Part shown: piece after piece, positions 11,687 to 40,959 of the stretch
Layout of the letters: each line of letters opens with the position of its first letter
Position numbering within the stretch: position 1 is the stretch's first letter
From: Alphaproteobacteria bacterium
Lineage (GTDB): Bacteria > Pseudomonadota > Alphaproteobacteria > JABAAW01
Length of the DNA: 64,000 nucleotides
Direction of reading: 5' to 3'
NCBI GenBank assembly: GCA_965216605.1
Contig: CBDCGG010000002.1
Coordinates: 519,871-583,870 of the forward strand
Notes under the pieces: model-generated
Told to the model about the DNA's origin: nothing
Seen by the model: only the letters and a program-made list of their open reading frames with translations
Database searches by the model: none
Made by a program: the position numbers and the translations under genes

Positions 11687-11834
11687 GGGAGCAGTAGGGG
11701 TTAGGGGGGGTCAATAGTAAGTAGCCGAAGGCAGTATAGCCTCTGATGGACGATGGTGGGCTACGATGGGCTATTCACCTAGATACTTATTGAAATGCTT
11801 TTTGGGTTGTCCACAAGTTTTTTTTTGTCTAACG

Positions 11835-11985: not shown

Positions 11986-12029
11986 ACGAAAAGCGCGTTA
12001 TTTTCCAAAAGCTCTGCTACACTCCCCCC

Positions 12030-12371: not shown

Positions 12372-12399
12372 TCCCCAATCCCCAATCTGAAGCTCCGCC

Positions 12400-13957: not shown

Positions 13958-14031
13958 GGCGGAGTAGCTCAGTTGGTTAGAGCAACGGAATCATAATCCG
14001 TGTGTCGGGGGTTCAAGTCCCTCCTCCGCTA
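13958..14031 (+). tRNA. tRNA with CAU anticodon (tRNA-Met, or tRNA-Ile2/lysidine)
   Basis: A manual cloverleaf fits: acceptor GGCGGAG/CTCCGCT, D-stem GCTC/GAGC, anticodon stem ACGGA/TCCGT, loop ATCATAA (CAT anticodon) and T-arm GGGGG-TTCAAGT-CCCTC. A T-run follows. Confidence 0.8.
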
Positions 14032-15050: not shown

Positions 15051-15818
15051 ATGCTTTACATAGCTTTCCTACGCTTCGTCTACAACCGCATTGTTTTAAA
15101 GTCTGGCGGCGTGATAAATTTCTTGTGGATTTGGAGCAAAAAGTCCTCTTCGTCAAAGGCATCCTCTGCTAGAAAAGGCGTTTTGTTTTGGCTTTTCTTG
15201 CCGTTGCGCTCCATCGTCAGCGTCGTGAGCGATTTCTTCTCTCGTGCGTTCGACAAACACTCGGAAGCAATCGCGCACGGGCGGTTGGCTACTCACTTAG
15301 GCGGACACTTCGGCTTTACGAATACCGACAAGGGAGCGTTAGTTTTTCTGAAAGAAACATTAGGCGTTGAATCGATGCTCGATGTGGGTTGCGGTCCCGG
15401 CAAGCAGGTGCGCCTTGCTCGTCGGCTCGGCATCGAGGCTTTCGGCGTCGACGGCGACTATACGCTGAAGTTTTCCGAACCCTATTTTTTCTTGCAAGAC
15501 TTCTCTAAGGGAAAGTTCTCTTGCGACAGAACATTCGATCTCGTTTGGTCGGTCGAATTTCTAGAGCATGTCGAAGAGCAATACCAGCCCTTTTACATGG
15601 CTACCTTTCGCTTGGCAAAAGCGGTTGTTTGCACAGCCGCTCTGCCAGGGCAGTTGGGCTTCCACCATGTCAACTGCCGCAAGCAAGCTTACTGGATCGG
15701 CGTGTTCAAAAAATACGGCTTTGTCTTCGACAAGACCAACACACAGAAGCTACGAGAACACAGCTCGATGGGACGCGACTTCATGCGCGATACGGGCATG
15801 CTTTTTATACGCAAATAA
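15051..15818 (+). CDS. Class I SAM-dependent methyltransferase (paralog 1; lower GC than surroundings)
   Basis: Motif I 'LDVGCGPG' and 'FGVDGD' are present, and it shares 'WSVEFLEHVEEQYQPFYM...VVCTAA.PG..G.HHVNC' with the 16899-17726 paralog. It is embedded in the cta cluster on the opposite strand. Confidence 0.55.
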   Translation: MLYIAFLRFVYNRIVLKSGGVINFLWIWSKKSSSSKASSARKGVLFWLFLPLRSIVSVVSDFFSRAFDKHSEAIAHGRLATHLGGHFGFTNTDKGALVFLKETLGVESMLDVGCGPGKQVRLARRLGIEAFGVDGDYTLKFSEPYFFLQDFSKGKFSCDRTFDLVWSVEFLEHVEEQYQPFYMATFRLAKAVVCTAALPGQLGFHHVNCRKQAYWIGVFKKYGFVFDKTNTQKLREHSSMGRDFMRDTGMLFIRK

Positions 15819-16898: not shown

Positions 16899-17726
16899 AT
16901 GTTGTATTCCTTGAAAAAGTTCATCAAACACCTTTTGCGGCGGTTCCTACAATCTTTTTTGTATGTTGCTCTTAAAATAGGATTTTTGTCTTTTCTGTTC
17001 CATTCCCGAATACTAGGAAAACTTCACGATTGGGCGCAATTGCAAGAAAACAGAAAAAACCAAAAGAACGATGATGCTTCAAGGAAACCCTTAAGCGCTC
17101 TTCTGTCTTTGTTCCGCCTGTCGGCAACAAGAGCCATTCTCCATGCAAACAAGTTTTGCATGGGGCACTACGATGCTCTCAAAAAAACTGACTTGCCCTA
17201 TTACATGGGCGGTCACGGAGGAGTGACACACTCGGATGTCGGAGCCCTCGTTTTCCTGAAAAAAGAATTCTCTATACAATCGATGATCGATATCGGTTGC
17301 GGACCAGGAGGGCAAGTCGACGCAGCACGAAAAAACGGAATCGAATCTTTTGGTGTCGACGGCGACAAGAGCCTGAAATTCAACAAACCCTGGTTCTTTA
17401 TACACGATTTCACGAAGGGACACTTTGCTTGCAAACGACACTTCGATCTTGCCTGGTCGGTCGAGTTTCTTGAGCATGTCGAAGAAAAGTATCAACCCTT
17501 CTACATGTCTCTTTTTCAGCGTGCCAAAGTTGTCGTTTGCACGGCGGCACCTCCGGGCAAACCCGGATATCACCATGTCAATTGCCGTGAAATAGCCTAT
17601 TGGATCAAGGTTTTTAAAAAATACGGATTCGCCTTCGATACAAACGGCACCGAACAACTGAAAAAACACTCAAGCATGCAACGCGAGTTTATGCACGAGA
17701 CGGGCATGCTGTTCGTCAAAGCATAG
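16899..17726 (+). CDS. Class I SAM-dependent methyltransferase (paralog 2; markedly AT-rich 5' half)
   Basis: Motifs 'IDIGCGPGGQV', 'FGVDGD' and 'WSVEFLEHVEEKYQPFYM...VVCTAAPPGKPGYHHVNC' are present. It is paralogous to 15051-15818. Confidence 0.55.
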   Translation: MLYSLKKFIKHLLRRFLQSFLYVALKIGFLSFLFHSRILGKLHDWAQLQENRKNQKNDDASRKPLSALLSLFRLSATRAILHANKFCMGHYDALKKTDLPYYMGGHGGVTHSDVGALVFLKKEFSIQSMIDIGCGPGGQVDAARKNGIESFGVDGDKSLKFNKPWFFIHDFTKGHFACKRHFDLAWSVEFLEHVEEKYQPFYMSLFQRAKVVVCTAAPPGKPGYHHVNCREIAYWIKVFKKYGFAFDTNGTEQLKKHSSMQREFMHETGMLFVKA

Positions 17727-19564: not shown

Positions 19565-21226
19565 TCAGCGCGAGATGCGCGGCGGCGTCGAGAAGCTGTG
19601 GAAAGGCGGTGGTGTCGAGACCGTCCACTCCAAAGTGGTCGCGCCCGCACCCCAGTAGTTGTCGGCAACCTTCTGCTTGCCGCGACCGCGCACCAAAACG
19701 ACGACAACCGTAGCGACGAAGAACAAAGTGGAGGCGAAAGAAAGATAGCTGCCGTAGGAAGAGACCGCGTTCCAACCCGCGTAAGCTTCGTTGTAGTCGA
19801 TATAACGGCGCGGCATGCCTGCCAATCCCAAGAAATGCTGCGGGAAGAAGACGATGTTCACGCCGATAAAGGTTGTCCAAAAATGAAGTTTGCCTGCCCA
19901 GTCAGGGATGACGCAACCGCTCATCTTGGTAAACCAATAATAGAAGCCTCCGAAGATGGCGAACACCGCGCCGAGACTGAGCACATAGTGGAAATGTCCG
20001 ACGACATAGTAGGTGTCGTGCAGTTGCACATCGACACCTCCAAGCGCGAGGACGACCCCCGTCACGCCTCCGATGGTGAAGAGCCCGATGAAGCCGATCG
20101 CCCACAGCATAGGCACAGCAAATCTAATCGAGCCGCCCCACATGGTAGCGAGCCAGCTGAAGATCTTGATGCCCGTCGGCACAGCGATGATCATAGTACC
20201 AACGCTGAAGTAGAGTTTGAGCATAAAGCCCATACCGACGGTAAACATATGGTGCGCCCAAACGACGCTTCCCAAGAAACCGATGGCGATCATGGCAGAG
20301 ACCATGCCTAGGTAGCCGAAAATGGGCTTGCGCGAGAAGGTCGAGACGATGTGACTGATGATGCCGAAGGCGGGTAGAATCATGACATAAACTTCGGGGT
20401 GTCCGAAGAACCAAAATAGATGCTGAAACAAGAGCGGATCTCCTCCCCCCTCAGGCACGAAGAAGGATGTGGCAAAGTTGCGGTCGGCGAGCAGCATCGT
20501 GATGGCACCGCCGAAGACGGGCATGGTCATGACAAGCAGGAAGGCTGTGATCAACATCGACCAGGCGAACAGAGGCATGATGCGAAGTGTCATGCCTGGT
20601 GCGCGCATATTGAAGATGGTGACGATGAAGTTGATCGCACCCAGAACGGAGGAAGCACCTGCCAAATGCATGGCGACGATAGCGAGATCAACCGAAGCGT
20701 TCGCGTGTCCGAGCGTCCCAGACAAGGGCGGATAGAGCGTCCATCCCGTGCCTGCACCGCCAACAAAGAGGGAAAGCACCAAAAGCAAAAGGGAGGGAGG
20801 GAGAAGCCAAAAACTGATGTTGTTCATGCGCGGAAAAGCCATGTCGGGCGCGCCGATCATGAGGGGGACAAACCAATTGCCGAACCCTCCGATCAAGGCG
20901 GGCATGACGGTGAAAAAGACCATGATCAAGCCGTGCGCGGTGATGAAGACATTCCATATGTGTCCATCGGGAGCGCCCGCGTTGAGAAAATACTGCACGC
21001 CCGGTTCTTGCAACTCCAGGCGCATAAGAAAAGAAATGCCACCACCAACCAGTCCTCCCACAATGGCGAAGACCAAGTACATCGTTCCGATGTCCTTGTG
21101 GTTCGTCGAAAAAAGCCAGCGTCCGATACCGTAGGGACGATGCTCTGCGTGAGAGGGAGATTTCCTTGAAGCAGCCTTTGCTTTTTTCTTTCCGTTCATG
21201 GTGATGCTTGCCATGGGGTTTTTCAC
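19565..21226 (-). CDS. ctaD: Cytochrome c oxidase subunit I
   Basis: The 553-aa protein carries canonical COX1 motifs ('[14 protein letters not shown]', 'WAHHMFTVG', '[13 protein letters not shown]'). Confidence 0.95.
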
Positions 21227-22203
21227 TCCTGTGCGTTGTGCGTTTGTGTGGCGAGAAGGTCGCCTTGCCGATTATTGTCTATATTCGCGGCGAATTGTTT
21301 TTTGGCTTTTCTGAGCCATATGACGAACTCGGCTTTGGAGACGACACGCACTTCGACGGGCATATAGGCGTGTCCCGCTCCGCAGAGCTCCGTGCAGAAT
21401 CCGTAATAGACGCCTTTCTTTTCGGCGGTGAGCCAAGTTTCGTTCACGCGCCCTGGCACGCCATCGATCTTGACGGCGAAGCTCGGCACAGACCACGAGT
21501 GCAACACATCGGCGGCGGTGACGAGCACGCGCACCTTAACGCCGACGGGCAGGACGAGCGCGTTGTCGGTCTGCAGCAGGCGTTTGGATTTGTCTTTGAG
21601 ATCGTCTCCTTGGAGCAGGTTGGAGTCGAAGGTGAGTCCGTCGTGGTCGGGATATTCGTAAGACCAATACCACTGATGTCCCGTAGCTTTGACGGTGAGG
21701 GAGGCTTCTGACACATCTTCGATGGCGCGCATGAGGTTGAAGGAAGGCACGAAGAGCACAACGAGAATAGCGACAGGGATGAGCGTCCAAATAACTTCCA
21801 GACGAACGTTGTGCGTCCTTTTCGAGGGCTTGGGGTTTCGTTTCTCGGAAAAGCGCCAACAGATGAACCCTCCCAGCACAAAGACAAGGAGGCAGATGGC
21901 AGTGAGGACGGGCATCAGAAGGTTGTCGTGAAAGTCGAAGGCTTGACGAGCGAGCGACGAGGCAGGCTCTTGAAACCCAGTCTGCCAATTGTGCGAGGCG
22001 CCCACCGCCTCACCCTCTTGAGCAAGCGCTTGAGAAAACCCTTGAGAAAACGATTGGAAGAGCAGAAAAACGACAGCAATCACAAACGCTTTGGTAAACG
22101 TTTTTGCAAAAACTTGCGCAAGAACCCGCGCCTTTACGATACGGACAAGATAAACAAAACTCATGCCCCTATCATAGATACAACGACACGGTCTTTTCAA
22201 CAA
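21223..22203 (-). CDS. ctaC: Cytochrome c oxidase subunit II
   Basis: It has two TM helices plus a cupredoxin CuA centre '[12 protein letters not shown]' and 'HSWSVPSF'. Confidence 0.9.
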
Positions 22204-22236
22204 AAATTTCTGACCTGCTCGGCTTTAAGTTTTTTG

Positions 22237-23907
22237 CTAGGGTTTGCATAACATGAGTCCATAGAAGGGTTTTAGTTTCTCTGCTTTTTCAGGACATTGG
22301 GAGAGGGTAGGCAAGCGCACGCCACTCAAACCGCTGTCGTAATAATTGAAAAAGATCGGTATCGCCCAGTCTACTAGGCTCGTATCAGGCACGACAAACC
22401 ACCCCCCATGCTTCTCCGCCTGTCGCACATCGTATGAGCGCAAGAATGCATACTTGCCATCCTTTCTCATCCTTTGGACGGAGATATAAAGCAGGCAGGC
22501 AACAACAATAAACACGACGATTCTTTGAACGCGCGAAAAAGGAGGTTGCTTCTCGTCGGGCGCGAGCAGGAAAACAAGAAAGAGCACAGGTAGCCACCAG
22601 TTCTGCGGCGCATGGCGAAAAGAAAAACCCACATTGAACGAAAGTATCGAGACGGCGACCCCTGCCAAGACGAGCAACCCTCCTCGGTGTCGCACAAAAA
22701 ACACCAGTGTCAAACACAGAAGCAAGGCGCCGCTAAACAAAGAAGAAAAACCATGCAGAAACGATTGCAAGTTCAGAGAAGAAAACGGCGGTAAAGGAAC
22801 GGGAGTCCAATTGGAAGTTTCTGCCGTTTTTGAAAACAGCGCAATCCACCATTTCTCGTACTGCGACTTTCCTGAAAAGACGGGGCTTGATTCCTCCAAA
22901 AAAACTATCTCTTGTTTCTCTTCGCCGAACACGATAGCGGGATAAAAAGGATGGACAGGGTTTCCATGCAGGTAAGCGTTTGTCGAGTAAGGGAAGAAGC
23001 CGAATAAGACGACCCCCAAAATCGTAGCCGCACTCCCCAGCCCCGCCAGTTGCAAAAGCGTCTTTCGGCTTGCGCCTCGCCGTGCGCCGTAGGCAAGAGC
23101 CGTCATCCCCAAAACACCCCCAAAAACAAGCCCTGTGAACTTGATGTTGACAAGCAGCACGAGAAGACACGCGACATAAACAGCTGTCCTTAGTCGTATC
23201 GTTCGGCTTTGTGCTTTGCCCTCCGAGACAAAACAAAGCATGAGCAAGAAAGCGCTCAGCAGCGTCGAGACAAGCAAGCCGTCGTTGAGGTGGGAGAAAA
23301 AACACATGGCAACAATGGGGTTTGCCGCAAGCAGAGCAGCCAAAACATTGCGCCAAGAACGAGACAAGCGCGGCAGGGTTTCGAAGAAACGTCTTGCGCA
23401 CAGAAACGCTGCCAGAGCGGATAGAACCGAAAAGGCAAAGCTCGCCTCGAATGTTTGCGTCCATACAATCAGCGAGGCAGAAAGCAGCCAGTGCGCTGCG
23501 GGGTAAACATGAGTGACCCAACTGCTGGGTTGCCAGTAAGGATTGACATCCTCCAACAAATCAAGAATTGCTTGAGCATGGTAGCCGCGAGAATCCCATT
23601 CTCTGTCCAAGGTGAAACTCAAAGCCCATGCCGCGAGCGCAAAGACTGCCAAAAGCAGCAACAAGGTTGCAGCCAATCTCTGCCATTTTTCTTCTCGATG
23701 CAGTGCGACGACCGCTCCTCCCCACAGCAACAGCCCTGTCGGAAAGACCCAACGACCCCTCTCTATATCGATGCCTATATCGGCAAGCAGAGCAAATGCC
23801 GCCGTCATGTACAGAACGGGCAGAAACAACACCGCTGCTGTCAGCAACAGCTCTTCCACGAAAAAACTCCGTATTTTTCTGACCTGCTCGGCTTTCAGTT
23901 TTTTCAT
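22237..23907 (-). CDS. Paralog 1 of a 5-member tandem family of ~560-aa polytopic membrane proteins (putative GT-C-type glycosyl/arabinosyltransferase; function inferred from context only)
   Basis: It has about 13-14 predicted TM helices and a C-terminal soluble domain ending 'GGWFVVPD...NYYDSGLSGVRLPTLSQCPEKAEK'. Its start codon overlaps the stop of paralog 2 (TCAT). Family motifs are 'SFFVEELLL..VLFLP.LYMTAAFALL.DIGID.ERGRWVFPTGLLLWG', 'HWLLSASL.VWT' and 'NIKFTGLVFGG.LG.TALAYGARRGASRKT'. Confidence 0.75.
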   Translation of the reverse strand: MKKLKAEQVRKIRSFFVEELLLTAAVLFLPVLYMTAAFALLADIGIDIERGRWVFPTGLLLWGGAVVALHREEKWQRLAATLLLLLAVFALAAWALSFTLDREWDSRGYHAQAILDLLEDVNPYWQPSSWVTHVYPAAHWLLSASLIVWTQTFEASFAFSVLSALAAFLCARRFFETLPRLSRSWRNVLAALLAANPIVAMCFFSHLNDGLLVSTLLSAFLLMLCFVSEGKAQSRTIRLRTAVYVACLLVLLVNIKFTGLVFGGVLGMTALAYGARRGASRKTLLQLAGLGSAATILGVVLFGFFPYSTNAYLHGNPVHPFYPAIVFGEEKQEIVFLEESSPVFSGKSQYEKWWIALFSKTAETSNWTPVPLPPFSSLNLQSFLHGFSSLFSGALLLCLTLVFFVRHRGGLLVLAGVAVSILSFNVGFSFRHAPQNWWLPVLFLVFLLAPDEKQPPFSRVQRIVVFIVVACLLYISVQRMRKDGKYAFLRSYDVRQAEKHGGWFVVPDTSLVDWAIPIFFNYYDSGLSGVRLPTLSQCPEKAEKLKPFYGLMLCKP

Positions 23908-25586
23908 TGAGGTTTGCACAATGTCAGTCCACTGTAGAGTTCGCGCTTCGGAGCATTGTACGGACATTGGGACATCGTAGGCAAGCGCACGCCGCTCAAA
24001 CCGCTATCGTAGTAATTGAAAAAGATCGGTATATGCCAATCTACCAGCATATTTGTGTCGGGAACGACAAACCACCCTCCCTCTTGTTCCGCTTGTTGCA
24101 CAACCTGTGCAAGCCATAGTGCCTCCCTGTGACGGAACCTCAGCCTTTGGACGGAGAGATAAAGCAGGCAGGCAACAACAACGAACACCACGATTCTTTG
24201 GGCTCTTTGTGCGCGCAAAAAAGAAGATTGCTTCTCGTCGGGCGCGAGCAGAAAGACAAGCAAGAGCACAGGCAACCACCAGTTCTGCGGCGTGAGGCGA
24301 AACGCGAAGCTCACACGCGTCGAGATAACGGATACCATAACCCCTGCCAAGACGAACCACGCTCCTCGGTGTCGCACAAAAAACACCAGCGTCAGACACA
24401 GAAGTAGCGAGCCGCTAAACAAAGTGCCGAAGCCGCCATAAAAAGCCTCGTATTGACGCAAAGAAAACGGCGGCAAAGGAGCAGGAGTCCAATAATCTTT
24501 CCCTCTTTCCGAGAACAGCGAAATCCACCATTTCTCGTACGAAGACTTGGCGTAGAATTCTTTGTCAAAAAGCCTGCCGACGATGTCCTTTGTTTTATCT
24601 TTCTCGGCAAAGGAGATCGCAGGGTAGAAGGGGTTTTTATGCAGCGCCATGTTCGTCGCGTAAGGGAAGAAGCCAAATAGGGCGACCCCCAAGATCGCCG
24701 CACCGCTGCCAAGCCCCGCAAGATGTACAAGCGTCTTTCTACTTGCTCCGCGTCGCGCGCCGTAAGCCAGTGCCGTCAGCCCCAGTATGCCGCCGTAGAC
24801 GAGCCCCGTGAACTTGATGTTGACGAGGAAGATTAATAAAGACGCAATACAAAAGGCGGCTCGAAAGCGTATCGTTCGACTTTGTGCTTTACCCTCAGAG
24901 ACAAAGCACAACATGAGCATGGATACACTCAATAACGTCGAGACAAGCAAGCCATCGTTATAGTGGACGAAGAAACACCATGTTGCGACGGGGTTGGCAG
25001 CGAGCAGGAATGCCAAAACATTGCGCCAAACACCAGACAAGTGCGATAGGGTTGGCGTTGCCAAAAAACGCCTTGCGCACAGAAACGCCGCCACGACAGC
25101 AACGCCTGTCAAGGCAAAGCTTGCCTCGAAACTTTGCGTCCATACAATCAGCGAGGCAGAAAGTAGCCAATGCGCTGTGGGATAAGTGTAGGTGATCCAG
25201 CTTCTAGGCTCCCAGTAGGGATTGACTCCCTCCAACAAGCCAAGAATTGCAAGAGCATGGTAGAAGCGTGAGTCTTGTCCCCTATCCAAATAAAGACTCG
25301 TCGCCCACGCCGTGAGCGCGAATACCGCCAAGAACAACAGCAGCGTTGCCACCAACTTCTGCCACTTTTCTTCTCGATGCAGTGCCACGATCGCTATGCC
25401 CCACAGCAACAGCCCTGTCGGAAAGACCCAACGACCCCTCTCCATATCGATGCCTATATCGGCAAGCAGAGCAAATGCCGCCGTCATGTACAAGATCGGC
25501 AGAAACAACACCGCTGCTGTCAGCAACAGCTCTTCCACGAAAAAACTCCGTATTCTTCTGACCTGCTCGACCTTCAGTTTTTTCAT
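23904..25586 (-). CDS. Paralog 2 of the tandem polytopic membrane-protein family
   Basis: It has the same architecture. Its N-terminal ~60 aa are nearly identical to paralog 1 ('MKKLK.EQVRRIRSFFVEELLLTAAVLFLP'). Its stop overlaps the paralog 1 start, and its start overlaps the paralog 3 stop. Confidence 0.75.
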   Translation of the reverse strand: MKKLKVEQVRRIRSFFVEELLLTAAVLFLPILYMTAAFALLADIGIDMERGRWVFPTGLLLWGIAIVALHREEKWQKLVATLLLFLAVFALTAWATSLYLDRGQDSRFYHALAILGLLEGVNPYWEPRSWITYTYPTAHWLLSASLIVWTQSFEASFALTGVAVVAAFLCARRFLATPTLSHLSGVWRNVLAFLLAANPVATWCFFVHYNDGLLVSTLLSVSMLMLCFVSEGKAQSRTIRFRAAFCIASLLIFLVNIKFTGLVYGGILGLTALAYGARRGASRKTLVHLAGLGSGAAILGVALFGFFPYATNMALHKNPFYPAISFAEKDKTKDIVGRLFDKEFYAKSSYEKWWISLFSERGKDYWTPAPLPPFSLRQYEAFYGGFGTLFSGSLLLCLTLVFFVRHRGAWFVLAGVMVSVISTRVSFAFRLTPQNWWLPVLLLVFLLAPDEKQSSFLRAQRAQRIVVFVVVACLLYLSVQRLRFRHREALWLAQVVQQAEQEGGWFVVPDTNMLVDWHIPIFFNYYDSGLSGVRLPTMSQCPYNAPKRELYSGLTLCKPQ

Positions 25587-27292
25587 TGAGGTTTGCACAA
25601 TGCCAGCCCATCGAGGGGTCTCATTTTCTCTGCTTTGTCTGGGCATTGAAGCATCGTGGGCAAGCGCACGCCGCTCAAACCGCTGTTGTAGTAACGGAAA
25701 AAGGCTTCTGTGTGGTGTTTCATCTGCAGATCGGGCACGACAAACCACCCTCCTTGCCGCTCCGCCTGTCGCACAACTTGCGACAAGGCGACTGCCAGAT
25801 TGCCATGATACATCAGCCTTGCGACGGAGATATAAAGCATGCAGGCAACAACGACAAACACGATAGCTCTTTGCGCACGCGACAAAGAGCGCGACAAAGG
25901 AGATGACTTCTCGTCAGGCGCGAGCAGAAAGACGAGAAAGAGCATCGGCAGCCACCAGTTCTGTGGCGCGTGGCGAGAAGAAAGACCCACCCCGAACGAA
26001 AGAATCGAGACGCCAACCCCTGCCAAAACAAGCAACCCTCCTCGATGACGCACAAAAAACACCAGCGTCAGACACAGAAGTAGCGAGCCGCTAAACAAAG
26101 AGCCGAACCCGTCCAAAAAAGATATAGGGCTCAGCGAAGAAAACGGCGGCAAAGGAGCAGGAACTCTCCAATCTCCTTGCGTTTGTGAAAACAGCCCAAT
26201 CCACCATTCCTCGTATTGCAACCTTTCTAAAAAAACGGGGTTTGCTTCCTCCAAAAAAGCTATCTCTTGTTTCCCTTCGCCGAACACGATAGCAGGATAA
26301 AAAGGATGGACAGGGTTTCCATGCAGGTAAGCGTTCGTCGAGTAAGGGAAGAAGCCGAACAGAGCGACCCCCAAGAGAGCCGCACCACTGCCCAGTCCTG
26401 CAAGGCGGACAAGCGTCTTTCGGCTTGCGCCGCGCCTGACCCCGTAAGCCAGCGCCGTCAGTCCCAAAGCACCCCCGAAGACGAGCCCCGTGAACTTGAT
26501 ATTGATGAGAAATACAAGAAGACACACGATACAAAAGGCTGTCCGTCGCAAGCGTCGTTTGTTTTCCCTTTGAGAGCCTTCTTCGCAGACAAAGCAGAGC
26601 ATCAGCATAAAAACGCTCAAAAGCACGGATACCAAAAAGCCGTCGTTGTAGTTCATAAAAAAACAAGAGAACGCGATGGGGTTGCCAGCAAGTAACGCGG
26701 CGAGAAGATTGCGCTTCGAACGAGATGAAGCACGAGACAAGTGTGGCAGCGTTGCCAAGAAACGCCTTGCGCACAGAAACGCCGCCACGACAGCAATGAC
26801 GGTGAAGACAACGCTAGTCGTAAGGAGTTGTGTCCACACAACAAGCGAGGCAGAAAGCAGCCAGTGCGCTGTGGGATAAGTGTAGGTGATCCAGCTTCTA
26901 GGCTCCCAGTAGGGATTTCTTCCCTCCAACAAGCCAAGGATTGCACGAGCATGGTAGTGGCGAGAATCCCATTCAATATCCGCGAGGAAACTCGCCGCCC
27001 ACACCGCGAGCGCGAATATTGCCAAAACCAGCAATAGGGTTGCGAGCCGTCTCTGCCATTTTTCCTCTCGATGCAGTGCCGCGACCGCTATACCCCACAG
27101 CAGTAGCCCTGTCGGAAAAACCCAACGACCCCTCTCCATATCGATGCCGATGTCCGCAAGCAGAGCAAACGCCGCCGTCATGTACACAATGGGCAGAAAC
27201 AACACCGCCGCTGTCAGCAACAGCTCTTCCACGAAAAAACTCCGTATTCTTCTGACCTGCTCGGCTTTCAGTTTTTTTACTAGGGTTTGCAC
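25583..27292 (-). CDS. Paralog 3 of the tandem polytopic membrane-protein family
   Basis: It has the same architecture. The canonical ATG of paralogs 1 and 2 is replaced by GTA (Val), so a GTG 4 codons upstream is used as the start. Confidence 0.7.
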   Translation of the reverse strand: MQTLVKKLKAEQVRRIRSFFVEELLLTAAVLFLPIVYMTAAFALLADIGIDMERGRWVFPTGLLLWGIAVAALHREEKWQRRLATLLLVLAIFALAVWAASFLADIEWDSRHYHARAILGLLEGRNPYWEPRSWITYTYPTAHWLLSASLVVWTQLLTTSVVFTVIAVVAAFLCARRFLATLPHLSRASSRSKRNLLAALLAGNPIAFSCFFMNYNDGFLVSVLLSVFMLMLCFVCEEGSQRENKRRLRRTAFCIVCLLVFLINIKFTGLVFGGALGLTALAYGVRRGASRKTLVRLAGLGSGAALLGVALFGFFPYSTNAYLHGNPVHPFYPAIVFGEGKQEIAFLEEANPVFLERLQYEEWWIGLFSQTQGDWRVPAPLPPFSSLSPISFLDGFGSLFSGSLLLCLTLVFFVRHRGGLLVLAGVGVSILSFGVGLSSRHAPQNWWLPMLFLVFLLAPDEKSSPLSRSLSRAQRAIVFVVVACMLYISVARLMYHGNLAVALSQVVRQAERQGGWFVVPDLQMKHHTEAFFRYYNSGLSGVRLPTMLQCPDKAEKMRPLDGLALCKPQ

Positions 27293-28956
27293 AATGCCAG
27301 CCCATGGATGGGTATCATTTTCTCTGCCTTTTCAGGGCATTGGGAGAGGGTAGGCAAGCGCACGCCACTAAAGCCGCTGTCGTAGTAACGGAAAAAGGCT
27401 AAAGCCTTCCGTTTCATCAGCAGATCGGGGACAAGGAACCATCCTCCCTGCTGTTCCGCTTGTTTCACAACCCGCATTGTCTTGATTGCTGCCACGCCAT
27501 AAAAATTTGCGCTTTGGAAAGAGTCGTAGCACAAGCAAGCGACAACAGCGAACACCGCGATTCTTTGGGCTCTTTGCGCGCGCGACAAAAGATTTTTCTT
27601 CTCGTCGGGCGCGAGCAAGAAAACAAGAAAAAGTATAGGCATCCACCAGTTTTGCGGCGTGAGGCGGAAATGGAAACTGGCAGATGTCGAGAGAATGGAT
27701 ACCATGATACCTGCCAAAACGAACCACGCTCCTCTGTGTCGCACAAAAAACACCAAGCTCATACACAGAAGCCACGAGCCACCAAAAAGAGGTCCTAGGC
27801 TTGAGATGAAGGATGTGGGACGCAAAGAAGAAAAAGGCGGTAGAGGAGCGAGACGCCACTCGCCGTTCACCGGTTTGGAGAACAGCGAAAGCCACCATTT
27901 CTCGTAATGCGACCTTTTATAAAATTCTGGGGACACAAGGGGACGGGTTATGTCGCTTGTTTTCTTTCCCTTGTCAAAGAAGATTGCGGGGTAGAAGGGA
28001 TTTTTATGTAGCGCAGTGTTCGTCGCGTAAGGGTAGAAGCCGAATAGGGCGACCCCCAAAATAGCAGCCGCACTCCCCAACCCCGCCAGTCGCAAGAGCG
28101 TTGCGCGGCTTGCGCCACGCCGTGCGCCGTAAGCCAGCGCTGTCAGCCCTAAGATGCCGCCGAAGACGAGCCCCGTGAACTTGATATTGACGAGCAACAC
28201 GAGAAGACACACGATATAAACGGCGGCTCGAAGCTGTGTCGTTCGACTTTGCCTCTTGCCTTCCGAGACAAAGCAAAGCATGAGCAAGAAAACACTCAAC
28301 AGCGTCGAGACAAAAAAGCCATCGACACTGTGGACGAAGTAGCACCATATTGCGATGGGGTTGGCAGCGAGCAGGAACGCCAAAACATGACGCCAGAAAC
28401 GGGACAAGTGCTGTAGCGTTGCCAAATAACGCCTTGCGCACAGGAAGGCTGTCAGAACGGACAGAGCCGTGAAAGCAAAGCTCGCGGTGAAAAGTTTTGT
28501 CCATACAATCAGCGAGGAAGAAAGCAGCCAGTGAGCAGCGGGGTAGGTGTAGTAGACATAACGCGTGCCCCAAGTGTTGGGATGACGATAGGGATTTCCT
28601 CCATCCAACAACGCCAAAATAGATTGTGCATGGTAGGTGCGACCATCCCACCCTCTGTCCAAAAAGAAACTCGTAGCCCACGCCGCGAGCGCAAAGCCTG
28701 CCAATAACAGCAACAGCGTTGCCGCTTGTTTGTGCCACCTTTCCTCTCGATGCAGTGCCGCGACCGCAACTCCCCACAGCAGCAACCCCGTAGGAAAAAC
28801 CCAACGACCCCTCTCCATATCGATGCCTATGTCGGAAAGCAGAGCAAATGCCGCCGTCATGTACAAGACAGGCAGAAACAACACCGATGCCGAAAGCAAC
28901 AGCTCTTCCGAGAAAAAACGCCTTGCTCTTCCGATGGAAGCACCTATGGCTTGCAT
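27280..28956 (-). CDS. Paralog 4 of the tandem polytopic membrane-protein family
   Basis: It has the same architecture. A ~230-nt stretch of its 5' end (about 28680-28915) is near-identical to paralog 5 (about 30355-30595). It overlaps both neighbours by 13 nt. Confidence 0.75.
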   Translation of the reverse strand: MQAIGASIGRARRFFSEELLLSASVLFLPVLYMTAAFALLSDIGIDMERGRWVFPTGLLLWGVAVAALHREERWHKQAATLLLLLAGFALAAWATSFFLDRGWDGRTYHAQSILALLDGGNPYRHPNTWGTRYVYYTYPAAHWLLSSSLIVWTKLFTASFAFTALSVLTAFLCARRYLATLQHLSRFWRHVLAFLLAANPIAIWCYFVHSVDGFFVSTLLSVFLLMLCFVSEGKRQSRTTQLRAAVYIVCLLVLLVNIKFTGLVFGGILGLTALAYGARRGASRATLLRLAGLGSAAAILGVALFGFYPYATNTALHKNPFYPAIFFDKGKKTSDITRPLVSPEFYKRSHYEKWWLSLFSKPVNGEWRLAPLPPFSSLRPTSFISSLGPLFGGSWLLCMSLVFFVRHRGAWFVLAGIMVSILSTSASFHFRLTPQNWWMPILFLVFLLAPDEKKNLLSRAQRAQRIAVFAVVACLCYDSFQSANFYGVAAIKTMRVVKQAEQQGGWFLVPDLLMKRKALAFFRYYDSGFSGVRLPTLSQCPEKAEKMIPIHGLALCKP

Positions 28957-30701
28957 AGCACCAACCCATAGACGAGTCTGCGTGTCTCTGCTTTTTCAGG
29001 ACATTGGGGCATAGTAGGCAAGCGCACGCCACTCAAGCCGCTGTCGTAGTAATCGAAAAAGATTTGACTTTCGCTATTTTTAATCTGCGGATCAGGAACA
29101 ATGAACCACCCTCCCTGCCGCTCCACCTTTCGCACAACCCGCGCCGTCTCGATCGATGCCCCACCATAAAATTTGACGCTTTGGATTGAGGCATATAACA
29201 AGCAGGCGACAACGACTAAGATCACGATTCTTTGGGCTCTTTGCGCGCGCGACAAAAGGTTTTTCTTCTCGTCGGGCGCGAGCAGAAAGACGAGAAATAG
29301 CACAGGCAACCACCAGTTCTGCGGCGCGTGGCGAAAAGAAAAACCCACCTCGAACAAAAATATTGAGGCGGCAACCCCTGCCAAAACGAGCCAAGCTCCT
29401 CGGTGTCGCACAAAAAACACCAAGGTCAGACATAAAAGCAAGGCGCCGCTAAACAAAGAGCCGAACCCATAAAGAAAATCTCCGGGTCTAAGTGAAGAAA
29501 AAGGCGGCAAAGGAACGGGATCCCAACCACTTGCTGACCCACTTTTGGAAAACAATGAAATCCACCATTTTTCGTACTGCGATCTTCCTGAAAAGACAGG
29601 GCTTGAATCCTCCCAAAAAACTATCTCTTGTTTCTCTTCGCCGTACACGATAGCAGGATAGAAAGGATGGACAGGGTTGCCATGCAGGTAGGCGTTCGTC
29701 GCGTACGGGTAGAAGCCAAACAGCGCGACCCCCAAGATCGTAGCCGCACTGCCCAGCCCTGCAAGTTGTACAAGCGTCTTTCGACTTGCGCCGCGTCGTG
29801 CGCCGTAAGCAAGCGCTGTCAGCCCTAAGATGCCGCCGAAGACGAGCCCCGTGAACTTGATATTGATGAGAAACACGAGAAGACACGCGATACAAAAGGC
29901 GGCTCTAAGCCGTGTTGTTCGACTTTGCCTCTTGCCTTCCGAGACAAAGCACAACATGAGCAAGAAGACACTCAGTAGCGTGGATACAAGCAAACCATCG
30001 GTATGGTTGGTAAAGAAGCACCATGTTGCGATGGGGTTGGCAGCGAGCAGGAACGCCAAAACATTACGCCAGAAACGAGACAAGTGCTGTAGCGTTGCCA
30101 AATAACGCCTTGCGCAGAAAAACGCCGACAGAGTGGCTACGACCGTAAAGACAAAGCTTACCTCAAACATGTGCGTCCATACGATCAACGAGGCAGAAAG
30201 CAACCAGTGAGCCACAGGGTAGGTCAAAATGACCCACAACTTGAGCCAACTGTTAGGGTGCCGGTAGGGATTGACTCCCTCCAACAAGTCAAGGATTGCC
30301 TGAGAATGGTAGTCGCGAGAATCGTAGTTGTTGTCCAAAAGGAAACTCGTAGCCCACGCCGCGAGCGCAAAGCCTGCCAATAACAGCAACAGCGTTGCCG
30401 CTTGTTTGTGCCACCTTTCCTCTCGATGCAGTGCCACGACCGCAACTCCCCACAGCAGCAACCCCGTAGGAAAAACCCAACGACCCCTCTCCATATCGAT
30501 GCCTATGTCGGAAAGCAGAGCAAATGCCGCCGTCATGTACAAGACAGGCAGAAACAACACCGATGCCGAAAGCAACAGCTCTTCCGAGAAAAATCGCTCG
30601 CCACAAGACGACACGCTCCCTTCCCACGCCTTGACACGGCGTTGTAAAGACGACGAAAGGCGACAGCACGCATCGGCGATTGTTGGCAAAAGATGTTTCA
30701 T
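28944..30701 (-). CDS. Paralog 5 (first in transcription order) of the tandem polytopic membrane-protein family
   Basis: It has the same architecture and a longer N-terminal extension. It starts 48 nt from tRNA-Ser on the opposite strand. Confidence 0.75.
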   Translation of the reverse strand: MKHLLPTIADACCRLSSSLQRRVKAWEGSVSSCGERFFSEELLLSASVLFLPVLYMTAAFALLSDIGIDMERGRWVFPTGLLLWGVAVVALHREERWHKQAATLLLLLAGFALAAWATSFLLDNNYDSRDYHSQAILDLLEGVNPYRHPNSWLKLWVILTYPVAHWLLSASLIVWTHMFEVSFVFTVVATLSAFFCARRYLATLQHLSRFWRNVLAFLLAANPIATWCFFTNHTDGLLVSTLLSVFLLMLCFVSEGKRQSRTTRLRAAFCIACLLVFLINIKFTGLVFGGILGLTALAYGARRGASRKTLVQLAGLGSAATILGVALFGFYPYATNAYLHGNPVHPFYPAIVYGEEKQEIVFWEDSSPVFSGRSQYEKWWISLFSKSGSASGWDPVPLPPFSSLRPGDFLYGFGSLFSGALLLCLTLVFFVRHRGAWLVLAGVAASIFLFEVGFSFRHAPQNWWLPVLFLVFLLAPDEKKNLLSRAQRAQRIVILVVVACLLYASIQSVKFYGGASIETARVVRKVERQGGWFIVPDPQIKNSESQIFFDYYDSGLSGVRLPTMPQCPEKAETRRLVYGLVLCKP

Positions 30702-30749
30702 CGCTCGTCTATGCTAGGGTGGCGTGTGGCTGAAAGGCGAGGGGCTTGC

Positions 30750-30836
30750 GGAGAGGTGCCGGAGCGGTCGAACGGGACGGTCTCGAAAACCGTTGTGCGC
30801 GCAAGCGCACCGAGGGTTCGAATCCCTCCCTCTCCG
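30750..30836 (+). tRNA. tRNA-Ser (CGA anticodon), class II with long variable arm
   Basis: The fold fits manually: acceptor GGAGAGG/CCTCTCC, anticodon stem ACGGT/ACCGT with loop CTCGAAA (CGA anticodon), a variable-arm hairpin GTGCGCGCAAGCGCAC, and T-arm GAGGG-TTCGAAT-CCCTC. Confidence 0.8.
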
Positions 30837-30898
30837 TATCAACTCTCGCCTCAACCCTAGCACAAGAACCAGAGAAGCAAGAATCAGAGAGATAAGCG

Positions 30899-31684
30899 TC
30901 AAAGAGGCAAACGTTTGAAAATTTTCTCTGGAATATTGCGGATGATCGCCATGATCCCGACCCACAGCCACGGCACATAGAGCTGCTCGCGCTTTCGCTC
31001 GATGGCGCGCAAGATAACACGAGCGACATGCTCAGGACTGCTCCACAAAGCACCCTTGCGGAACGAGGCGGTCATCTTCGTAGCCACGAATCCTGGCTTG
31101 ATCGTCTGAATACACAAAGGCGAGCCTGCGCGCGCCAAACGATGACGCAACCCCTGCAAAAAGAGCGCGACCGCACCCTTGCCCGATCCATAGATATAGT
31201 TTGACGCGCGACCGCGATCGCCCGCGACCGAACCAAAAACAGAGATCACACCCCCCCTCTTCTCCATGCGTGCGCTCGCAGCATGAGCCAGCGAGGCAAC
31301 GCTGAGAAAGTTCGTCTCCCAGGCGATGCGCGCCTGTTCAAAGTTTTTCTCGGCGATTTTTTGGTTCGGCAAAACTCCTTGCGCAAGCACAACAACCCCC
31401 AATCCTCCCAAGGCTTTGTGCGCGTGAGCGAGCAAACCGTCGTGCGAGGCGAAGTTGCGCGCCTCGAAACCTTCGATCGCTACAAAACTAGCACCGCGCA
31501 GCGTCAAGTCCTTGGCAAGCCTTGCTAGTCCCTTCTTGTCGCGCGAAAAAAGGCAGAGGCGCGCGCCGCGCACAGCCCACAGGCGCGCCATCGCGCGTGC
31601 TATGTCGGCGTTCGCCCCGAAGATCGCTATATGTTCAGGGCTTTGGTGGTCGGATTTATGGCGCTTAAGATTCTTCGTTGTCAT
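30899..31684 (-). CDS. dprE2: Decaprenylphospho-2'-keto-ribose reductase DprE2-like short-chain dehydrogenase
   Basis: The 261-aa SDR has a Rossmann 'IAIFGANADIARAMA', the catalytic 'YGSGKGAV', and a C-terminus 'IMAIIRNIPEKIFKRLPL' that closely matches Mtb Rv3791 'VMMVLRHIPRSIFRKLPI'. An AAGGAG RBS is present. The track ORF (668 aa) is Arg-rich read-through of another frame; the true start is the internal Met at 31684. Confidence 0.85.
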   Translation of the reverse strand: MTTKNLKRHKSDHQSPEHIAIFGANADIARAMARLWAVRGARLCLFSRDKKGLARLAKDLTLRGASFVAIEGFEARNFASHDGLLAHAHKALGGLGVVVLAQGVLPNQKIAEKNFEQARIAWETNFLSVASLAHAASARMEKRGGVISVFGSVAGDRGRASNYIYGSGKGAVALFLQGLRHRLARAGSPLCIQTIKPGFVATKMTASFRKGALWSSPEHVARVILRAIERKREQLYVPWLWVGIMAIIRNIPEKIFKRLPL

Positions 31685-31719: not shown

Positions 31720-33036
31720 TTAAAGCCCGAGTCGCTGCGATTGCCGCGAGGCAAAAAGGGTGTCCGCTTCGACCTTGCGCCGTACGGCACAAAACTCTTT
31801 CCAGCGAGGATAGCCTTTGCGAAAGTTCTTTTTCGAGAGGCGTGCGTCTTTCGTCAGATAGACGCGCCCTCCGACAGCATGCACGAGCGCGTCCAAATTT
31901 TCCAGCAGCTCGAAGACGCGCGCGTTGTTTTGAAAGTCGAGCGCGAGCGTATATCCCTCCTGAGGAAAGGACAGAGGCGACAGCGCGATACCGCGCCCCA
32001 TCGTCTTCAACACGGCGAGAAAAGACCCTTGTCGAGACGCGACGACACGTTGCAAAATCTCTTCGAGCACATAGCACCCGTCTTTTTTTGGCACGACGCA
32101 CTGGTATTGCAAAAACCCGCGCTTGCCGTAAAGACGGTTCCAGTGTCGAATGCCGTCGAGCGGATAGAAGAACTTGTCGTATGCAACGATTCGCTCGATG
32201 GGCTTTGGGGCGCGACACCCGTAGTATAAGGCGTTGAAGGCGCGCACGGAGAGGGGGTTGAGCAGGAAGGAGGGAGCGTTGCAGGGAACAGAGACCAGTC
32301 CTTTTTCTTCGATGCGCCATCCCGCGCGCTCGGCGTGTTCGGCGAGGAAGAGAACACCGCGTCCCATATTTTTGCCTCGTGCGAGACAATCGAGCCACGC
32401 AACCGAGTAGGTTGTCTCGGCATGGTGTTCCAACAACTCGACGAGTTCCTGAAGGTTGCGCGCGCGTTGGCTTGTCTCCAGCATGTATGCGCTCGGCACG
32501 CGCTTCATGCGTAAGGTGAGGTCGATAACAACCCCGACAAGTCCCATCCCGCCGCAGACGGCGTGAAACAGCTCGGCATTCTTGCGCCGCGAGCAGGATA
32601 CGATCGTACCATCCGCGATCATCACGCGCATGTCTTGTATGTGATGAGCAAAGCTTCCTTCTTTGTGATGGTTTTTGCCGTGCACATCGCTGGCGACAGC
32701 TCCTCCCAGCGTCACATGCCTTGTGCCGGGCGAGACGGGCACCGCCCACCCTACAGGCAGGAAGACGCGCAACAGATCGTCGAGCGCAACGCCCGCCAGA
32801 CATCGAAGGTATCCTGTGCGCTCGTCGAAGGCGCTGAGCGTGTCGAAGGCGCGCATGTCGAGGCTGACGGGCGCGAGCGCACAATCGCCGTAGCCGCGTC
32901 CGCAACCCCGTGCGATCAAACGCTCACCGCGTGCACGCGCAGAGCGCAAAACCTCTCGCAAACCTTCCTCCGATGCGGGCGAGACAACCCGTGCCTCCAT
33001 CGAGGGATATCGCCCCCAACCTGCTATGCTCGTCAT
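31720..33036 (-). CDS. dprE1: Decaprenylphosphoryl-ribose 2'-oxidase DprE1-like FAD-dependent oxidoreductase
   Basis: Motifs 'GWGRYP', 'RGCGRGYGD' and 'SPGTRHVTLGGAVASDVHGKNHH' match the DprE1 signatures ('GWGR', 'RGLGRSYGD', '[23 protein letters not shown]'). It is 438 aa. An AAGGAG RBS precedes downstream dprE2 and the two are co-oriented. Confidence 0.9.
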   Translation of the reverse strand: MTSIAGWGRYPSMEARVVSPASEEGLREVLRSARARGERLIARGCGRGYGDCALAPVSLDMRAFDTLSAFDERTGYLRCLAGVALDDLLRVFLPVGWAVPVSPGTRHVTLGGAVASDVHGKNHHKEGSFAHHIQDMRVMIADGTIVSCSRRKNAELFHAVCGGMGLVGVVIDLTLRMKRVPSAYMLETSQRARNLQELVELLEHHAETTYSVAWLDCLARGKNMGRGVLFLAEHAERAGWRIEEKGLVSVPCNAPSFLLNPLSVRAFNALYYGCRAPKPIERIVAYDKFFYPLDGIRHWNRLYGKRGFLQYQCVVPKKDGCYVLEEILQRVVASRQGSFLAVLKTMGRGIALSPLSFPQEGYTLALDFQNNARVFELLENLDALVHAVGGRVYLTKDARLSKKNFRKGYPRWKEFCAVRRKVEADTLFASRQSQRLGL

Positions 33037-33226: not shown

Positions 33227-34144
33227 GTGGAGGATGGAGAAAACGCGATGCCAACAACTTTAAAACCGCTGCAAGACAAAAAGACGCGATCCTTATCGCT
33301 CTCTGTGCTTGCGCTGTTGCGCCCTTTGGAATGGAGCAAAGGCGTTTTTGTACTTTTTCCTGCCTTGTTTTATGATATCTCGCTCGTTGTGTGGAAGCCT
33401 GCCTTGTGGGGAGCGGTGCTTGCAAGCTTTGTGCTGTTTTGCCTTGCTGCCTCCGGCGTCTATGTCTTCAACGATCTGTTGGATATTGAACAAGATCGCA
33501 AGCATCCGATCAAGAAACATACGCGACCTCTCGCTTCAGGAGAGATCTCGAAGTCTTGGGCGTGGGGCATTTTTGTTGCGCTGTCGTCTGCCTGCTTTCT
33601 GTTGTCGGCAGCATTTGTGCCTGCGGTGTTTCCCTTTCTTCTCATCTATTGGCTTTTGATGCTTGCGTACAGCGCGAAGTTGAAGCATTGGGCGATCATC
33701 GATCTTTTTGTAATCGCGTTCGGCTTCTGCCTTCGCGTCGAGGCGGGTGCGGCGGCACTCGACGCTCCTGTTTCGCTGTGGATGCTGGCGACGACCTTGT
33801 GTCTTGCGTTGTTCCTTGCTGCCTCCAAGCGAAGGCAAGAGACACTTGCCAACAAGGCGCGCGCGCGGCGGGTGTTGAGCGTCTATTCCGTTCCTTTGAT
33901 CGAACGTTATATGATGATCGCGGCGGTTTGCACGCTGATGTTTTACAGCTTTTTTGCAACCGACATTCGTCCGAAGCTGGGTTATACGATTCCCTTCGTG
34001 CTGTTCGGCTTCTTCCGCTACTTGCTGCTGATCGAGCGTAGCTCTGACAAGGATTCTCCTACTGATCTGTTGTTTTCGGACAAATCTCTTTTGGCGTGCG
34101 TCGTCGTATGGGCGATGTTGTCGATGGTGTTGTTGTGGCACTAG
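33227..34144 (+). CDS. UbiA-family decaprenyl-phosphate 5-phosphoribosyltransferase (Rv3806c/DPPR synthase-like)
   Basis: The 305-aa protein has 'FCLAASGVYVFNDLLDIEQDRKHPIKKHTRPLASG', paralleling Rv3806c 'FSLAASAVYLVNDVRDVEADREHPTKRFRPIAAG'. Further similarity occurs at 'LKHWAIIDLFVI' and 'SKRRQETL'. It is divergent from dprE1-dprE2. Confidence 0.85.
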   Translation: MEDGENAMPTTLKPLQDKKTRSLSLSVLALLRPLEWSKGVFVLFPALFYDISLVVWKPALWGAVLASFVLFCLAASGVYVFNDLLDIEQDRKHPIKKHTRPLASGEISKSWAWGIFVALSSACFLLSAAFVPAVFPFLLIYWLLMLAYSAKLKHWAIIDLFVIAFGFCLRVEAGAAALDAPVSLWMLATTLCLALFLAASKRRQETLANKARARRVLSVYSVPLIERYMMIAAVCTLMFYSFFATDIRPKLGYTIPFVLFGFFRYLLLIERSSDKDSPTDLLFSDKSLLACVVVWAMLSMVLLWH

Positions 34145-38434: not shown

Positions 38435-38460
38435 CCCCTTTTCAAAGGACAGGAGACCTA

Positions 38461-40934: not shown

Positions 40935-40959
40935 GCTTGTCCTATGCAAGAGATAGTCT

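Follow-up and report, generated by a model that had tools for sequence, protein, structure and literature searches.

Five tandem genes for predicted GT-C-fold membrane glycosyltransferases beside candidate genes of a polyprenyl-phosphate pentofuranose pathway in an alphaproteobacterium

The window analysed here is a stretch of 64,000 nucleotides (64 kb) of contig CBDCGG010000002.1, from an alphaproteobacterium of the lineage JABAAW01. It carries an array of five intact paralogous genes, g5 to g1, which are arranged head to tail along the minus strand at positions 22237-30701, between tRNA-Ser(cga) and ctaC (Table 1). An initial annotation, made from the letters of the DNA, had described five minus-strand paralogs with overlaps of 4-13 nucleotides (nt), a tRNA-Ser gene at the 5' boundary and ctaC at the 3' boundary, and this description holds in each respect. 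The overlaps of g5 with g4 and of g4 with g3 are both 13 nt long, and the g3/g2 and g2/g1 junctions are ATGA sequences, in which the start codon overlaps the stop codon of the preceding copy within 4 nt. The starts of g2 and g1 were set at ATG 25586 and ATG 23907, because the N-termini beginning with MKKLK are conserved in the alignment. The proteins are 67-75% identical in pairwise comparisons, and the family motifs quoted in the initial annotation are all present in their alignment. Pseudogenization of some of the copies was considered and ruled out, since all five open reading frames (ORFs) are intact and encode the invariant residues of the family.

The array ends with the remnant of a sixth copy downstream of g1. 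The remnant was identified in a 45-nt local alignment to the 5' ends of g3, g1, and g2, which includes the last approximately 13 nt of g1 and has a gap of 1 nt. Judging from this alignment, the tandem repeat unit terminates in this stub, a short distance before ctaC. The stub occupies the ctaC upstream region, and therefore the true start of ctaC may lie further downstream than the annotated TTG (22203). The order of the genes on the 3' side of the array is ctaC-ctaD-ctaB-ctaG-ctaE. Terminator-like matches in a promoter and terminator scan were inflated by T-rich coding sequence.

Table 1. Features of the array and its surroundings, in positions of the window (aa, amino acids; FAD, flavin adenine dinucleotide)
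Feature	Position	Strand	Length	Description
g5	28944..30701	-	585 aa	First in array; predicted GT-C-fold membrane protein; every family-invariant residue kept
g4	27280..28956	-	558 aa	Copy used for the AlphaFold model
g3	25583..27292	-	569 aa	GTG start
g2	23904..25586	-	~560 aa	Likely start given; longest ORF reaches 25748; N-terminus MKKLKVEQ aligned
g1	22237..23907	-	~556 aa	Last in array; likely start given; longest ORF reaches 23967; invariant residues kept
Sixth-copy stub	22205..22236	-		Frameshifted 5' end of a copy, ~30 nt long and directly behind the g1 stop; 1-nt deletion; encodes KKLKAEQVR
tRNA-Ser(cga)	30749..30837	+		Bounds the array on its 5' side; opposite strand; found by ARAGORN and Rfam
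ctaC	21223-22203			3' boundary of the array
ctaD	19565-21226			Beyond ctaC
UbiA-type polyprenyl-phosphate phosphoribosyltransferase	33227..34144	+	305 aa	Pfam UbiA; no fused phosphatase or other extra domain
DprE1-like FAD oxidase	31720..33036	-	438 aa	Pfam FAD_binding_4 and ALO
DprE2-like short-chain reductase	30899..31684	-	261 aa	Pfam adh_short; AAGGAG precedes the ATG

On the other side of the tRNA gene are three genes for candidate enzymes of a polyprenyl-phosphate pentofuranose pathway. The UbiA-type gene is transcribed divergently from the dprE1- and dprE2-like genes and from the array. Its best NCBIfam match is decaprenyl-phosphate phosphoribosyltransferase, with 185 bits and thus below the 234-bit cut-off, and the protein shares 43% identity with the enzyme annotated on a Marivivens plasmid. 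The DprE1-like protein matches NCBIfam DprE1 with 410 bits and an E-value of 1e-122, which is below the 500-bit equivalog cut-off, and the next family follows at 1e-23. The DprE2-like protein scores 151 bits (E-value 3e-44) against NCBIfam DprE2, for which the cut-off is 250 bits, and its top match is a generic short-chain dehydrogenase/reductase model with 260 bits. The gene ribB, which encodes dihydroxybutanone phosphate (DHBP) synthase, an enzyme that uses ribulose-5-phosphate, overlaps the UbiA-type gene by 49 nt as called (34096-34144) and is adjacent to it in all relatives. This adjacency is probably inherited synteny, though both enzymes draw on pentose phosphates.

The donor pathway upstream of the array had been called complete; the UbiA-, DprE1-, and DprE2-like genes are present, but the remaining two functions have no homologue in the 64-kb window. 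Searches by tblastn with HAD, HAD-GtrA, and PAP2 queries returned no 5-phosphate phosphatase, and the window has no flippase homologue of the GtrA, SMR, or MATE type, nor a small EamA homologue beside the pathway genes. The sole flippase candidate is a full-length EamA protein with ten transmembrane (TM) helices, encoded at 14029-14991, approximately 8 kb from the array. The phosphatase and flippase genes may be located elsewhere in the genome. Additionally, the window contains no GtrB-type synthase, no pilin gene is evident among its annotated genes, and no polysaccharide, lipopolysaccharide, or pilin cluster adjoins the array.

None of the five array proteins matches a Pfam or NCBIfam model above threshold. 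The only recurrent sequence signal is a weak match to DUF2142 (PF09913), which scores 19.8, 21.4, and 20.3 bits in g2, g4, and g5, respectively, against a gathering cut-off of 30.1 bits, and is not found in g1 and g3. The match spans residues ~185-310, including D212 and N257/K259, and some relatives of the array carry a weak precomputed match to the same family. A match to TgpA_N in the Pfam scan is also weak. The Pfam models PMT_2/PMT, Arabinose_trans, and GT87 do not match the copies at E<=1, none of the five contains the DExxYW motif of ArnT, and a profile search of all PDB sequences with the family returned nothing at E<=10. The structure of g4, predicted by AlphaFold with 46 homologues, has a predicted local distance difference test score (pLDDT) of 87.5 and a predicted template modelling score (pTM) of 0.91. 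The polytopic membrane core of the model is superimposable on solved enzymes of the glycosyltransferase (GT) fold class GT-C: the top ranks of the Foldseek search are ArnT, Pmt4, Pmt1-Pmt2, AftB, and AftD, with a best E-value of 3.6e-4, and ArnT is the best match in both structure searches. The initial annotation had named placement in an unrelated transporter or polymerase class as grounds against its proposal, and no O-antigen polymerase (Wzy), ligase (WaaL), or transporter is among the top structural matches of the g4 model. It is highly likely that the five copies are GT-C transferases.

The window encodes a second, unrelated GT-C protein (Pfam PMT_2, ArnT-like) at 39312-41018 on the minus strand. 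Its gene adjoins olsB (37550-38434) and olsA (38263-39357), and this pairing with the ornithine-lipid genes is kept in the relative L003. The array family had been proposed to be distinct from this protein, which agrees with the missing DExxYW motif and PMT_2 match, and with a probability of 0.3% in the comparison of the array family profile with the ArnT-like protein by hhalign.

The topology of the array proteins was predicted from the secondary structure of the AlphaFold model and the positive-inside rule. The predicted fold comprises 13 TM helices, with the N-terminus inside and the C-terminus outside, and all the basic loops are cytoplasmic. Two large loops, formed by residues 100-156 and 306-387, are predicted to be periplasmic, as in the multi-TM architecture with two periplasmic loops that had been described from the sequence. 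A predicted periplasmic helix of residues 486-503 is followed by a 55-aa C-terminal beta domain with two invariant cysteines. Every family-invariant polar residue (D100, D104, Y108, H109, N121, D212, N257, K259, N313, and R431) is predicted to be exposed to the periplasm. Residues D104, P200, D212, K259, G306, N313, R431, and P434 are invariant in 95 diverse members of the family, D100 is near-invariant, and all of them are kept in each of the five copies. The family thus has a conserved acidic residue in the first large predicted extracytoplasmic loop and basic residues that would be on the same side of the membrane, as in GT-C active sites. In Emb proteins, the catalytic acidic loop follows TM3, as the conserved acidic loop is predicted to do in the array family. 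The side chains of D100, D104, Y108, and H109 from the loop after TM3 may, together with D212, provide the catalytic base and the sugar-binding residues, and K259 and R431 may bind the phosphate of the donor.

The array proteins belong to a family that is much larger than the clade of their host. A word-indexed search of 5.8 billion proteins identified about 63 close relatives, several per genome, and the same search with a broad alignment returned almost only the array's own clade. The representative genomes that carry the close relatives are uncultured metagenome-assembled genomes (MAGs), nearly all named "Alphaproteobacteria bacterium", together with one Rhodobiaceae and one Leptospirales. 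The "Leptospirales bacterium" protein is encoded on a 2.2-kb contig (L009, JABABJ010000106.1), is 42% identical to g4, and was obtained in the study that also yielded the alphaproteobacterial MAGs; its taxonomic assignment may be a binning error. The JABAAW01 lineage was described from Vazella and Haliclona sponges (PMC13393909). A hidden Markov model search of 1.84 billion representatives of 50%-identity clusters found 2,947 clusters at E<=1e-3, of which 1,750 also reach E<=1e-30. The source names of all the members that were checked are "hypothetical protein", and the carriers include Microbacterium rhizophilus and Solibacillus sp. Ten members of this wider family have no Pfam match over the family region, DUF2142 included, and tblastn searches of a plasmid collection with g4 and with the Microbacterium member returned nothing.

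Within the clade, the order of the genes around the array is fixed as olsBA-znu-ribB-UbiA / (DprE1-DprE2) / tRNA-Ser / array / ctaCD. The full order is kept in L001, L002, and L003, the linkage of the UbiA-type gene to the array is kept in L007, L010, and L105, and the tRNA-Ser gene has the same position in L001, L002, L003, L007, and L010. A genomic island inserted at the tRNA gene was ruled out, because the order of tRNA-Ser, array, and ctaC is the same in all relatives. In the deeper branches (L007/L008, L010, and L105), the array directly follows the UbiA-type gene.

Synteny alone could reflect inheritance, and therefore loci far outside the clade were examined. Distant relatives from Firmicutes and many metagenome lineages, which share approximately 20-30% identity with the array proteins, are encoded directly beside UbiA-type phosphoribosyltransferases. 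They are often accompanied by HAD or PAP2 proteins, GtrA, or phosphoribosyl pyrophosphate (PRPP) synthetase, and sometimes by DprE1/E2. In Solibacillus, a UbiA-type gene and a HAD-GtrA fusion precede the family member inside a teichoic-acid-type cluster. The order at locus L019 is PRPP synthetase, UbiA, HAD-GtrA, and family member; in L014, a UbiA gene precedes a family member that carries a fused HAD domain (10001-12628, 875 aa); and L027 has HAD-UbiA, DprE1, DprE2, and the family member in a row. Fusions of HAD to GtrA, a phosphatase joined to a putative flippase, are located between the UbiA and family genes in L018 (9022-9969) and L019 (6993-7967).

The frequency of this arrangement was determined by a metagenome scan with a motif-selected subset of the alignment; the scan returned 80 loci with 26-52% identity to its query, a distant family member. 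A phosphoribosyltransferase-type UbiA gene is present in 26 of the 80 loci, in 24 of them no more than 1.1 kb from the family gene. At least one pathway gene is present in 31 of the 80 loci, and DprE1 together with DprE2 in six. These counts are lower bounds, as many of the contigs are only 2-6 kb long; of the 27 loci that are flanked by 3 kb or more of sequence on each side, ten have the UbiA gene. A genome holds about one such UbiA gene, and the probability of chance adjacency is therefore well under 1%. Because the adjacency is far above chance, the family is, as judged from gene neighbourhoods, a habitual partner of polyprenyl-phosphoribose synthesis. We infer that the transferred sugar follows the accessory epimerases, so that it would be ribofuranose (Ribf) by default and arabinofuranose (Araf) at loci with DprE1/E2, such as that of the window.

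It is likely that the five genes encode periplasm-facing GT-C-fold glycosyltransferases, which use a polyprenyl-phosphate-linked pentofuranose donor from an Araf pathway. In the proposed mechanism, the UbiA-type enzyme would move ribose-5-phosphate from PRPP onto polyprenyl phosphate, and a phosphatase would remove the 5-phosphate. The DprE1-like oxidase and DprE2-like reductase would then epimerize C2, which would yield polyprenyl-phospho-D-arabinofuranose, and a flippase would expose the donor to the periplasm. Each paralog would pass Araf, and possibly also Ribf, to an envelope acceptor, and the organism probably decorates its surface with arabinofuranose. The initial annotation had also proposed periplasmic GT-C transferases that use polyprenyl-phospho-D-arabinofuranose, and the fold and the recurrent linkage to UbiA support this proposal, in which the sugar and the acceptor are predicted parts. 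A polyprenyl-phospho-pentofuranose donor is very likely, and Araf as the sugar of these particular copies is reasonably probable.

The GT-C transferases might instead use polyprenyl-phospho-ribofuranose, or both Ribf and Araf, in which case DprE1/E2 would supply only some of the paralogs. Twenty of the 26 family loci with UbiA lack DprE1/E2, and the Solibacillus and L019 loci exemplify this arrangement. The deeper relatives in the clade keep UbiA and the array without adjacent dprE1/E2, and the GT136 prototype, a pentofuranosyltransferase of Citrobacter youngae, takes both Ribf and Xylf (xylofuranose) donors (PMC11127046). However, dprE1 and dprE2 are located between the UbiA-type gene and the array in the window and its closest relatives, and in known systems Araf is expected in the glycan when the epimerase pair is present (PMC11127046). 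Use of Ribf, alone or with Araf, by the window's copies is unlikely, whereas the donor could be Ribf in the relatives without adjacent dprE1/E2.

We consider it quite unlikely that the transferases use an unrelated lipid donor, such as a polyprenyl-phospho-hexose or a lipid-linked oligosaccharide, and that the arabinose genes are adjacent through inherited synteny, with no functional link to the array. The region as a whole consists of housekeeping DNA in conserved order, with ribB, znuACB, olsBA, and the cta genes, and this could account for the adjacency within the clade, but not for its recurrence in the unrelated lineages described above. Furthermore, the window has no GtrB-type synthase. 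Approximately 60% of the sampled family loci have no pathway gene in the available DNA, and two occur in ordinary polysaccharide contexts without UbiA, P0064 after UDP-glucose dehydrogenase and P0132 in a Wzy/GT4 cluster; therefore, the family may also use other donors. A polymerase, ligase, flippase, or transporter with a mere helical-bundle likeness to GT-C, to which the sub-threshold sequence matches and modest Foldseek E-values might point, is highly implausible given the GT-C enzymes at the top of the structural matches and the invariant acidic and basic residues on the predicted periplasmic side.

Several observations weigh against polyprenyl-phospho-arabinofuranose as the donor, among them the loci without pathway genes and the two polysaccharide clusters. 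The window has neither a phosphatase nor a dedicated flippase gene, and dprE1/E2 in the deeper relatives are approximately 7 kb away (L008) or not in view beside the array (L105 and L010). The scores of the DprE1-, DprE2-, and UbiA-type proteins below the NCBIfam equivalog cut-offs are as would be expected for distant orthologues. The proposed catalytic role of the acidic loop after TM3, and that of K259 and R431 as phosphate ligands, depend on the predicted topology. For this organism, as for the whole family, the argument is built from genes and models.

Three-component pentofuranose glycosylation is already known as a kind and was defined in Gram-negative bacteria, with mention of versions with multiple GT-C enzymes (Kelly, Duong, Nothof, Lowary and Whitfield, PNAS 2024, PMC11127046). 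The array had initially been called undescribed, which applies to the enzyme family and its multi-copy array but not to the kind of system. In C. youngae, undecaprenyl-phospho-Ribf is the product of a UbiA-type synthase to which a HAD phosphatase is fused, a MATE protein is the presumed flippase, and the GT-C enzyme ORF12, the founder of GT136, was shown biochemically to add pentofuranose to the O antigen in the periplasm (PMC11127046). Conversion of the donor for Xylf or Araf is the task of epimerases, among them DprE1/E2 homologues, and DprE1/E2 accompany Araf-containing glycans (PMC11127046). Among alphaproteobacteria, Devosia is reported to have an arabinan-like glycan (PMC11127046).

The window resembles the ORF15-ORF14-ORF12 genes of C. 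youngae O1/O2 in that a UbiA-type polyprenyl-phosphoribose synthase is encoded beside a GT-C enzyme, the activity of which is here predicted. It also contains DprE1/E2 homologues, as do Araf systems, and ArnT is the nearest solved structure of both ORF12 and the array family. In contrast to the C. youngae system, the window's synthase has no fused phosphatase domain, the locus has no flippase gene, and there are five tandem copies of the transferase gene instead of one. According to its published description, ORF12 has 11 TM helices, a loop after TM1, and a carbohydrate-binding module at the C-terminus, as is characteristic of GT136, whereas the array proteins are predicted to have 13 TM helices, a loop after TM3, and the 55-aa C-terminal domain, and lack the EpsG-type Pfam match. 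Residues D31/Y35 and R349/Y350 of ORF12 resemble a D-x3-Y motif near the predicted catalytic loop of the family and an R-Y pair about 320 residues further on (consensus; R-L in g4); this resemblance is a lead taken from published residue numbers, and the two may be remotely related.

The pilin D-Araf system of Pseudomonas aeruginosa (PsPA7_6246-6249), compared by description, is likewise Gram-negative and has a UbiA-type synthase, DprE1, DprE2, and the GT-C-like transferase TfpW. However, TfpW glycosylates pilin, and its locus holds the pilin and a GtrA-like component, neither of which is evident in the window. ArnT, the undecaprenyl-phospho-4-amino-4-deoxy-L-arabinose:lipid A transferase of GT83, also uses a polyprenyl-phospho-pentose donor in the periplasm, but differs in its Pfam family and motif, as described above. 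DUF2142, to which the array proteins have the sub-threshold match, comprises polytopic proteins of Gram-positive cell-wall polysaccharide loci, where they occur in side-chain or backbone glycosylation loci. A cluster on a plasmid of Marivivens sp. JLT3646 (L023, NZ_CP018573.1, 5073-10232) contains, in order, a 740-aa hypothetical protein with 12 TM helices and a soluble C-terminal domain, a 119-aa EamA-type protein, a GT4 protein, a decaprenyl-phosphate phosphoribosyltransferase, and a PAP2 phosphatase, and resembles a further pentofuranose system, in which the GT-C partner is a different one. In hhalign comparisons, the array family profile has no relationship to the 740-aa Marivivens protein or to a B. 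multivorans protein encoded beside HAD-UbiA, which represent two other synthase-adjacent loci.

The three types of donor enzyme in the window are the same as those of mycobacterial and corynebacterial decaprenylphosphoryl-arabinose synthesis (Rv3806c, DprE1, and DprE2), and in both cases several transferases would serve one donor, as AftA, AftB, AftC, AftD, and EmbA/B/C do. The array copies have no sequence similarity to Aft or Emb proteins, either in Pfam at E<=1 or in the PDB profile search at E<=10, and the resemblance is at the level of the fold. Furthermore, the host of the array is a diderm that bears Tol-Pal, unlike the mycobacterial and corynebacterial hosts. The Aft and Emb proteins are ancient, mutually distant, and fixed in their roles, whereas the array copies cluster by genome and exchange segments. 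The proposed analogy to Aft/Emb as an ancient specialized set therefore fails, and subfunctionalized sets of orthologues comparable to AftA-D were ruled out for the same reason.

The number of copies in the array ranges from one to at least eight among related MAGs, at least some of which originate from sponges. Compared with the five copies of this window, L001 has at least eight, including one frameshifted copy and a remnant, L002 and L105 have three each, L005 and L010 have two each, and L003 has one, with further copies present as collapsed fragments on small contigs of that MAG. In a neighbour-joining tree, calculated without bootstrap and confounded by recombination, the five window copies form one group, the L001 copies with that of L003 form another, and the two L005 copies are nearly identical. 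The nucleotide identity of g4 and g5 is 99-100% over the first ~60 aligned codons and then drops to ~70%. Identities of up to 97% between g1 and g3 in alignment columns 370-400, and of up to 94% between g2 and g3 in columns 170-200, complete a mosaic along the genes, a less simple pattern than the initially described divergence of the central and C-terminal regions. The clustering by genome and the mosaic of nucleotide identity indicate, at the sequence level, lineage-specific duplication with gene conversion between the copies. Two family copies are also present around or after a HAD-UbiA gene outside the clade, in the metagenome loci L037 (6784-12666) and L080 (9737-13165), and small multi-copy sets are therefore not unique to the alphaproteobacterial clade.

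The segments that are least conserved between the copies are mostly predicted to be periplasmic. They include the helix 486-503 with a mean identity of 37%, the loops 423-433 (48%) and 205-212 (56%), and the large loop 306-387 (60%); TM4 and TM13 are as variable as the periplasmic segments. Because the divergence is concentrated in predicted periplasmic segments, the copies probably differ in acceptor or linkage specificity.

Apart from these genes, the window is an ordinary part of a diderm alphaproteobacterial chromosome, with purK, purM, class II ribonucleotide reductase, ruvAB, tolQ, tolB, mnmE, znuACB, and olsBA. Inside the cta cluster, ctaE is flanked by two ORFs with methyltransferase domains (15051-15818 and 16899-17726, both on the plus strand), which are located in the part of the window with the lowest GC content (0.507 at 16-18 kb), and L105 has a similar methyltransferase near its cta genes. 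Three long ORFs have no Pfam match at E<=1e-5: 4570-5883 (plus strand, 437 aa), 55653-57080 (plus strand, 475 aa), and 60380-62182 (minus strand, 600 aa).

If the five genes encode polyprenyl-phospho-pentofuranose-dependent transferases, approximately 2,900 sequence clusters without a Pfam or NCBIfam model would gain a testable function and a name, which would be of use for annotation and glycobiology. The three-component pentofuranose pathway defined in 2024 would come to include a second architecture of GT-C enzymes. As a natural set of close enzymes that differ mainly in their predicted periplasmic segments, the array is useful for mapping the acceptor specificity of GT-C enzymes. It is conceivable, though doubtful, that the array is a fast-evolving diversification device, in which duplication and gene conversion generate pentofuranosyltransferases with new acceptor or linkage specificities, so that a small-genome, sponge-associated alphaproteobacterium could vary a D-arabinan-like coat outside Actinobacteria, with the family as a second large GT-C family for polyprenyl-phospho-pentofuranose donors. 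If the preferred assignment to an Araf pathway is correct, the chemistry of D-arabinofuranose, best known as a drug-target pathway of mycobacteria, would also be used by uncultured Gram-negative bacteria with sponge-associated relatives.

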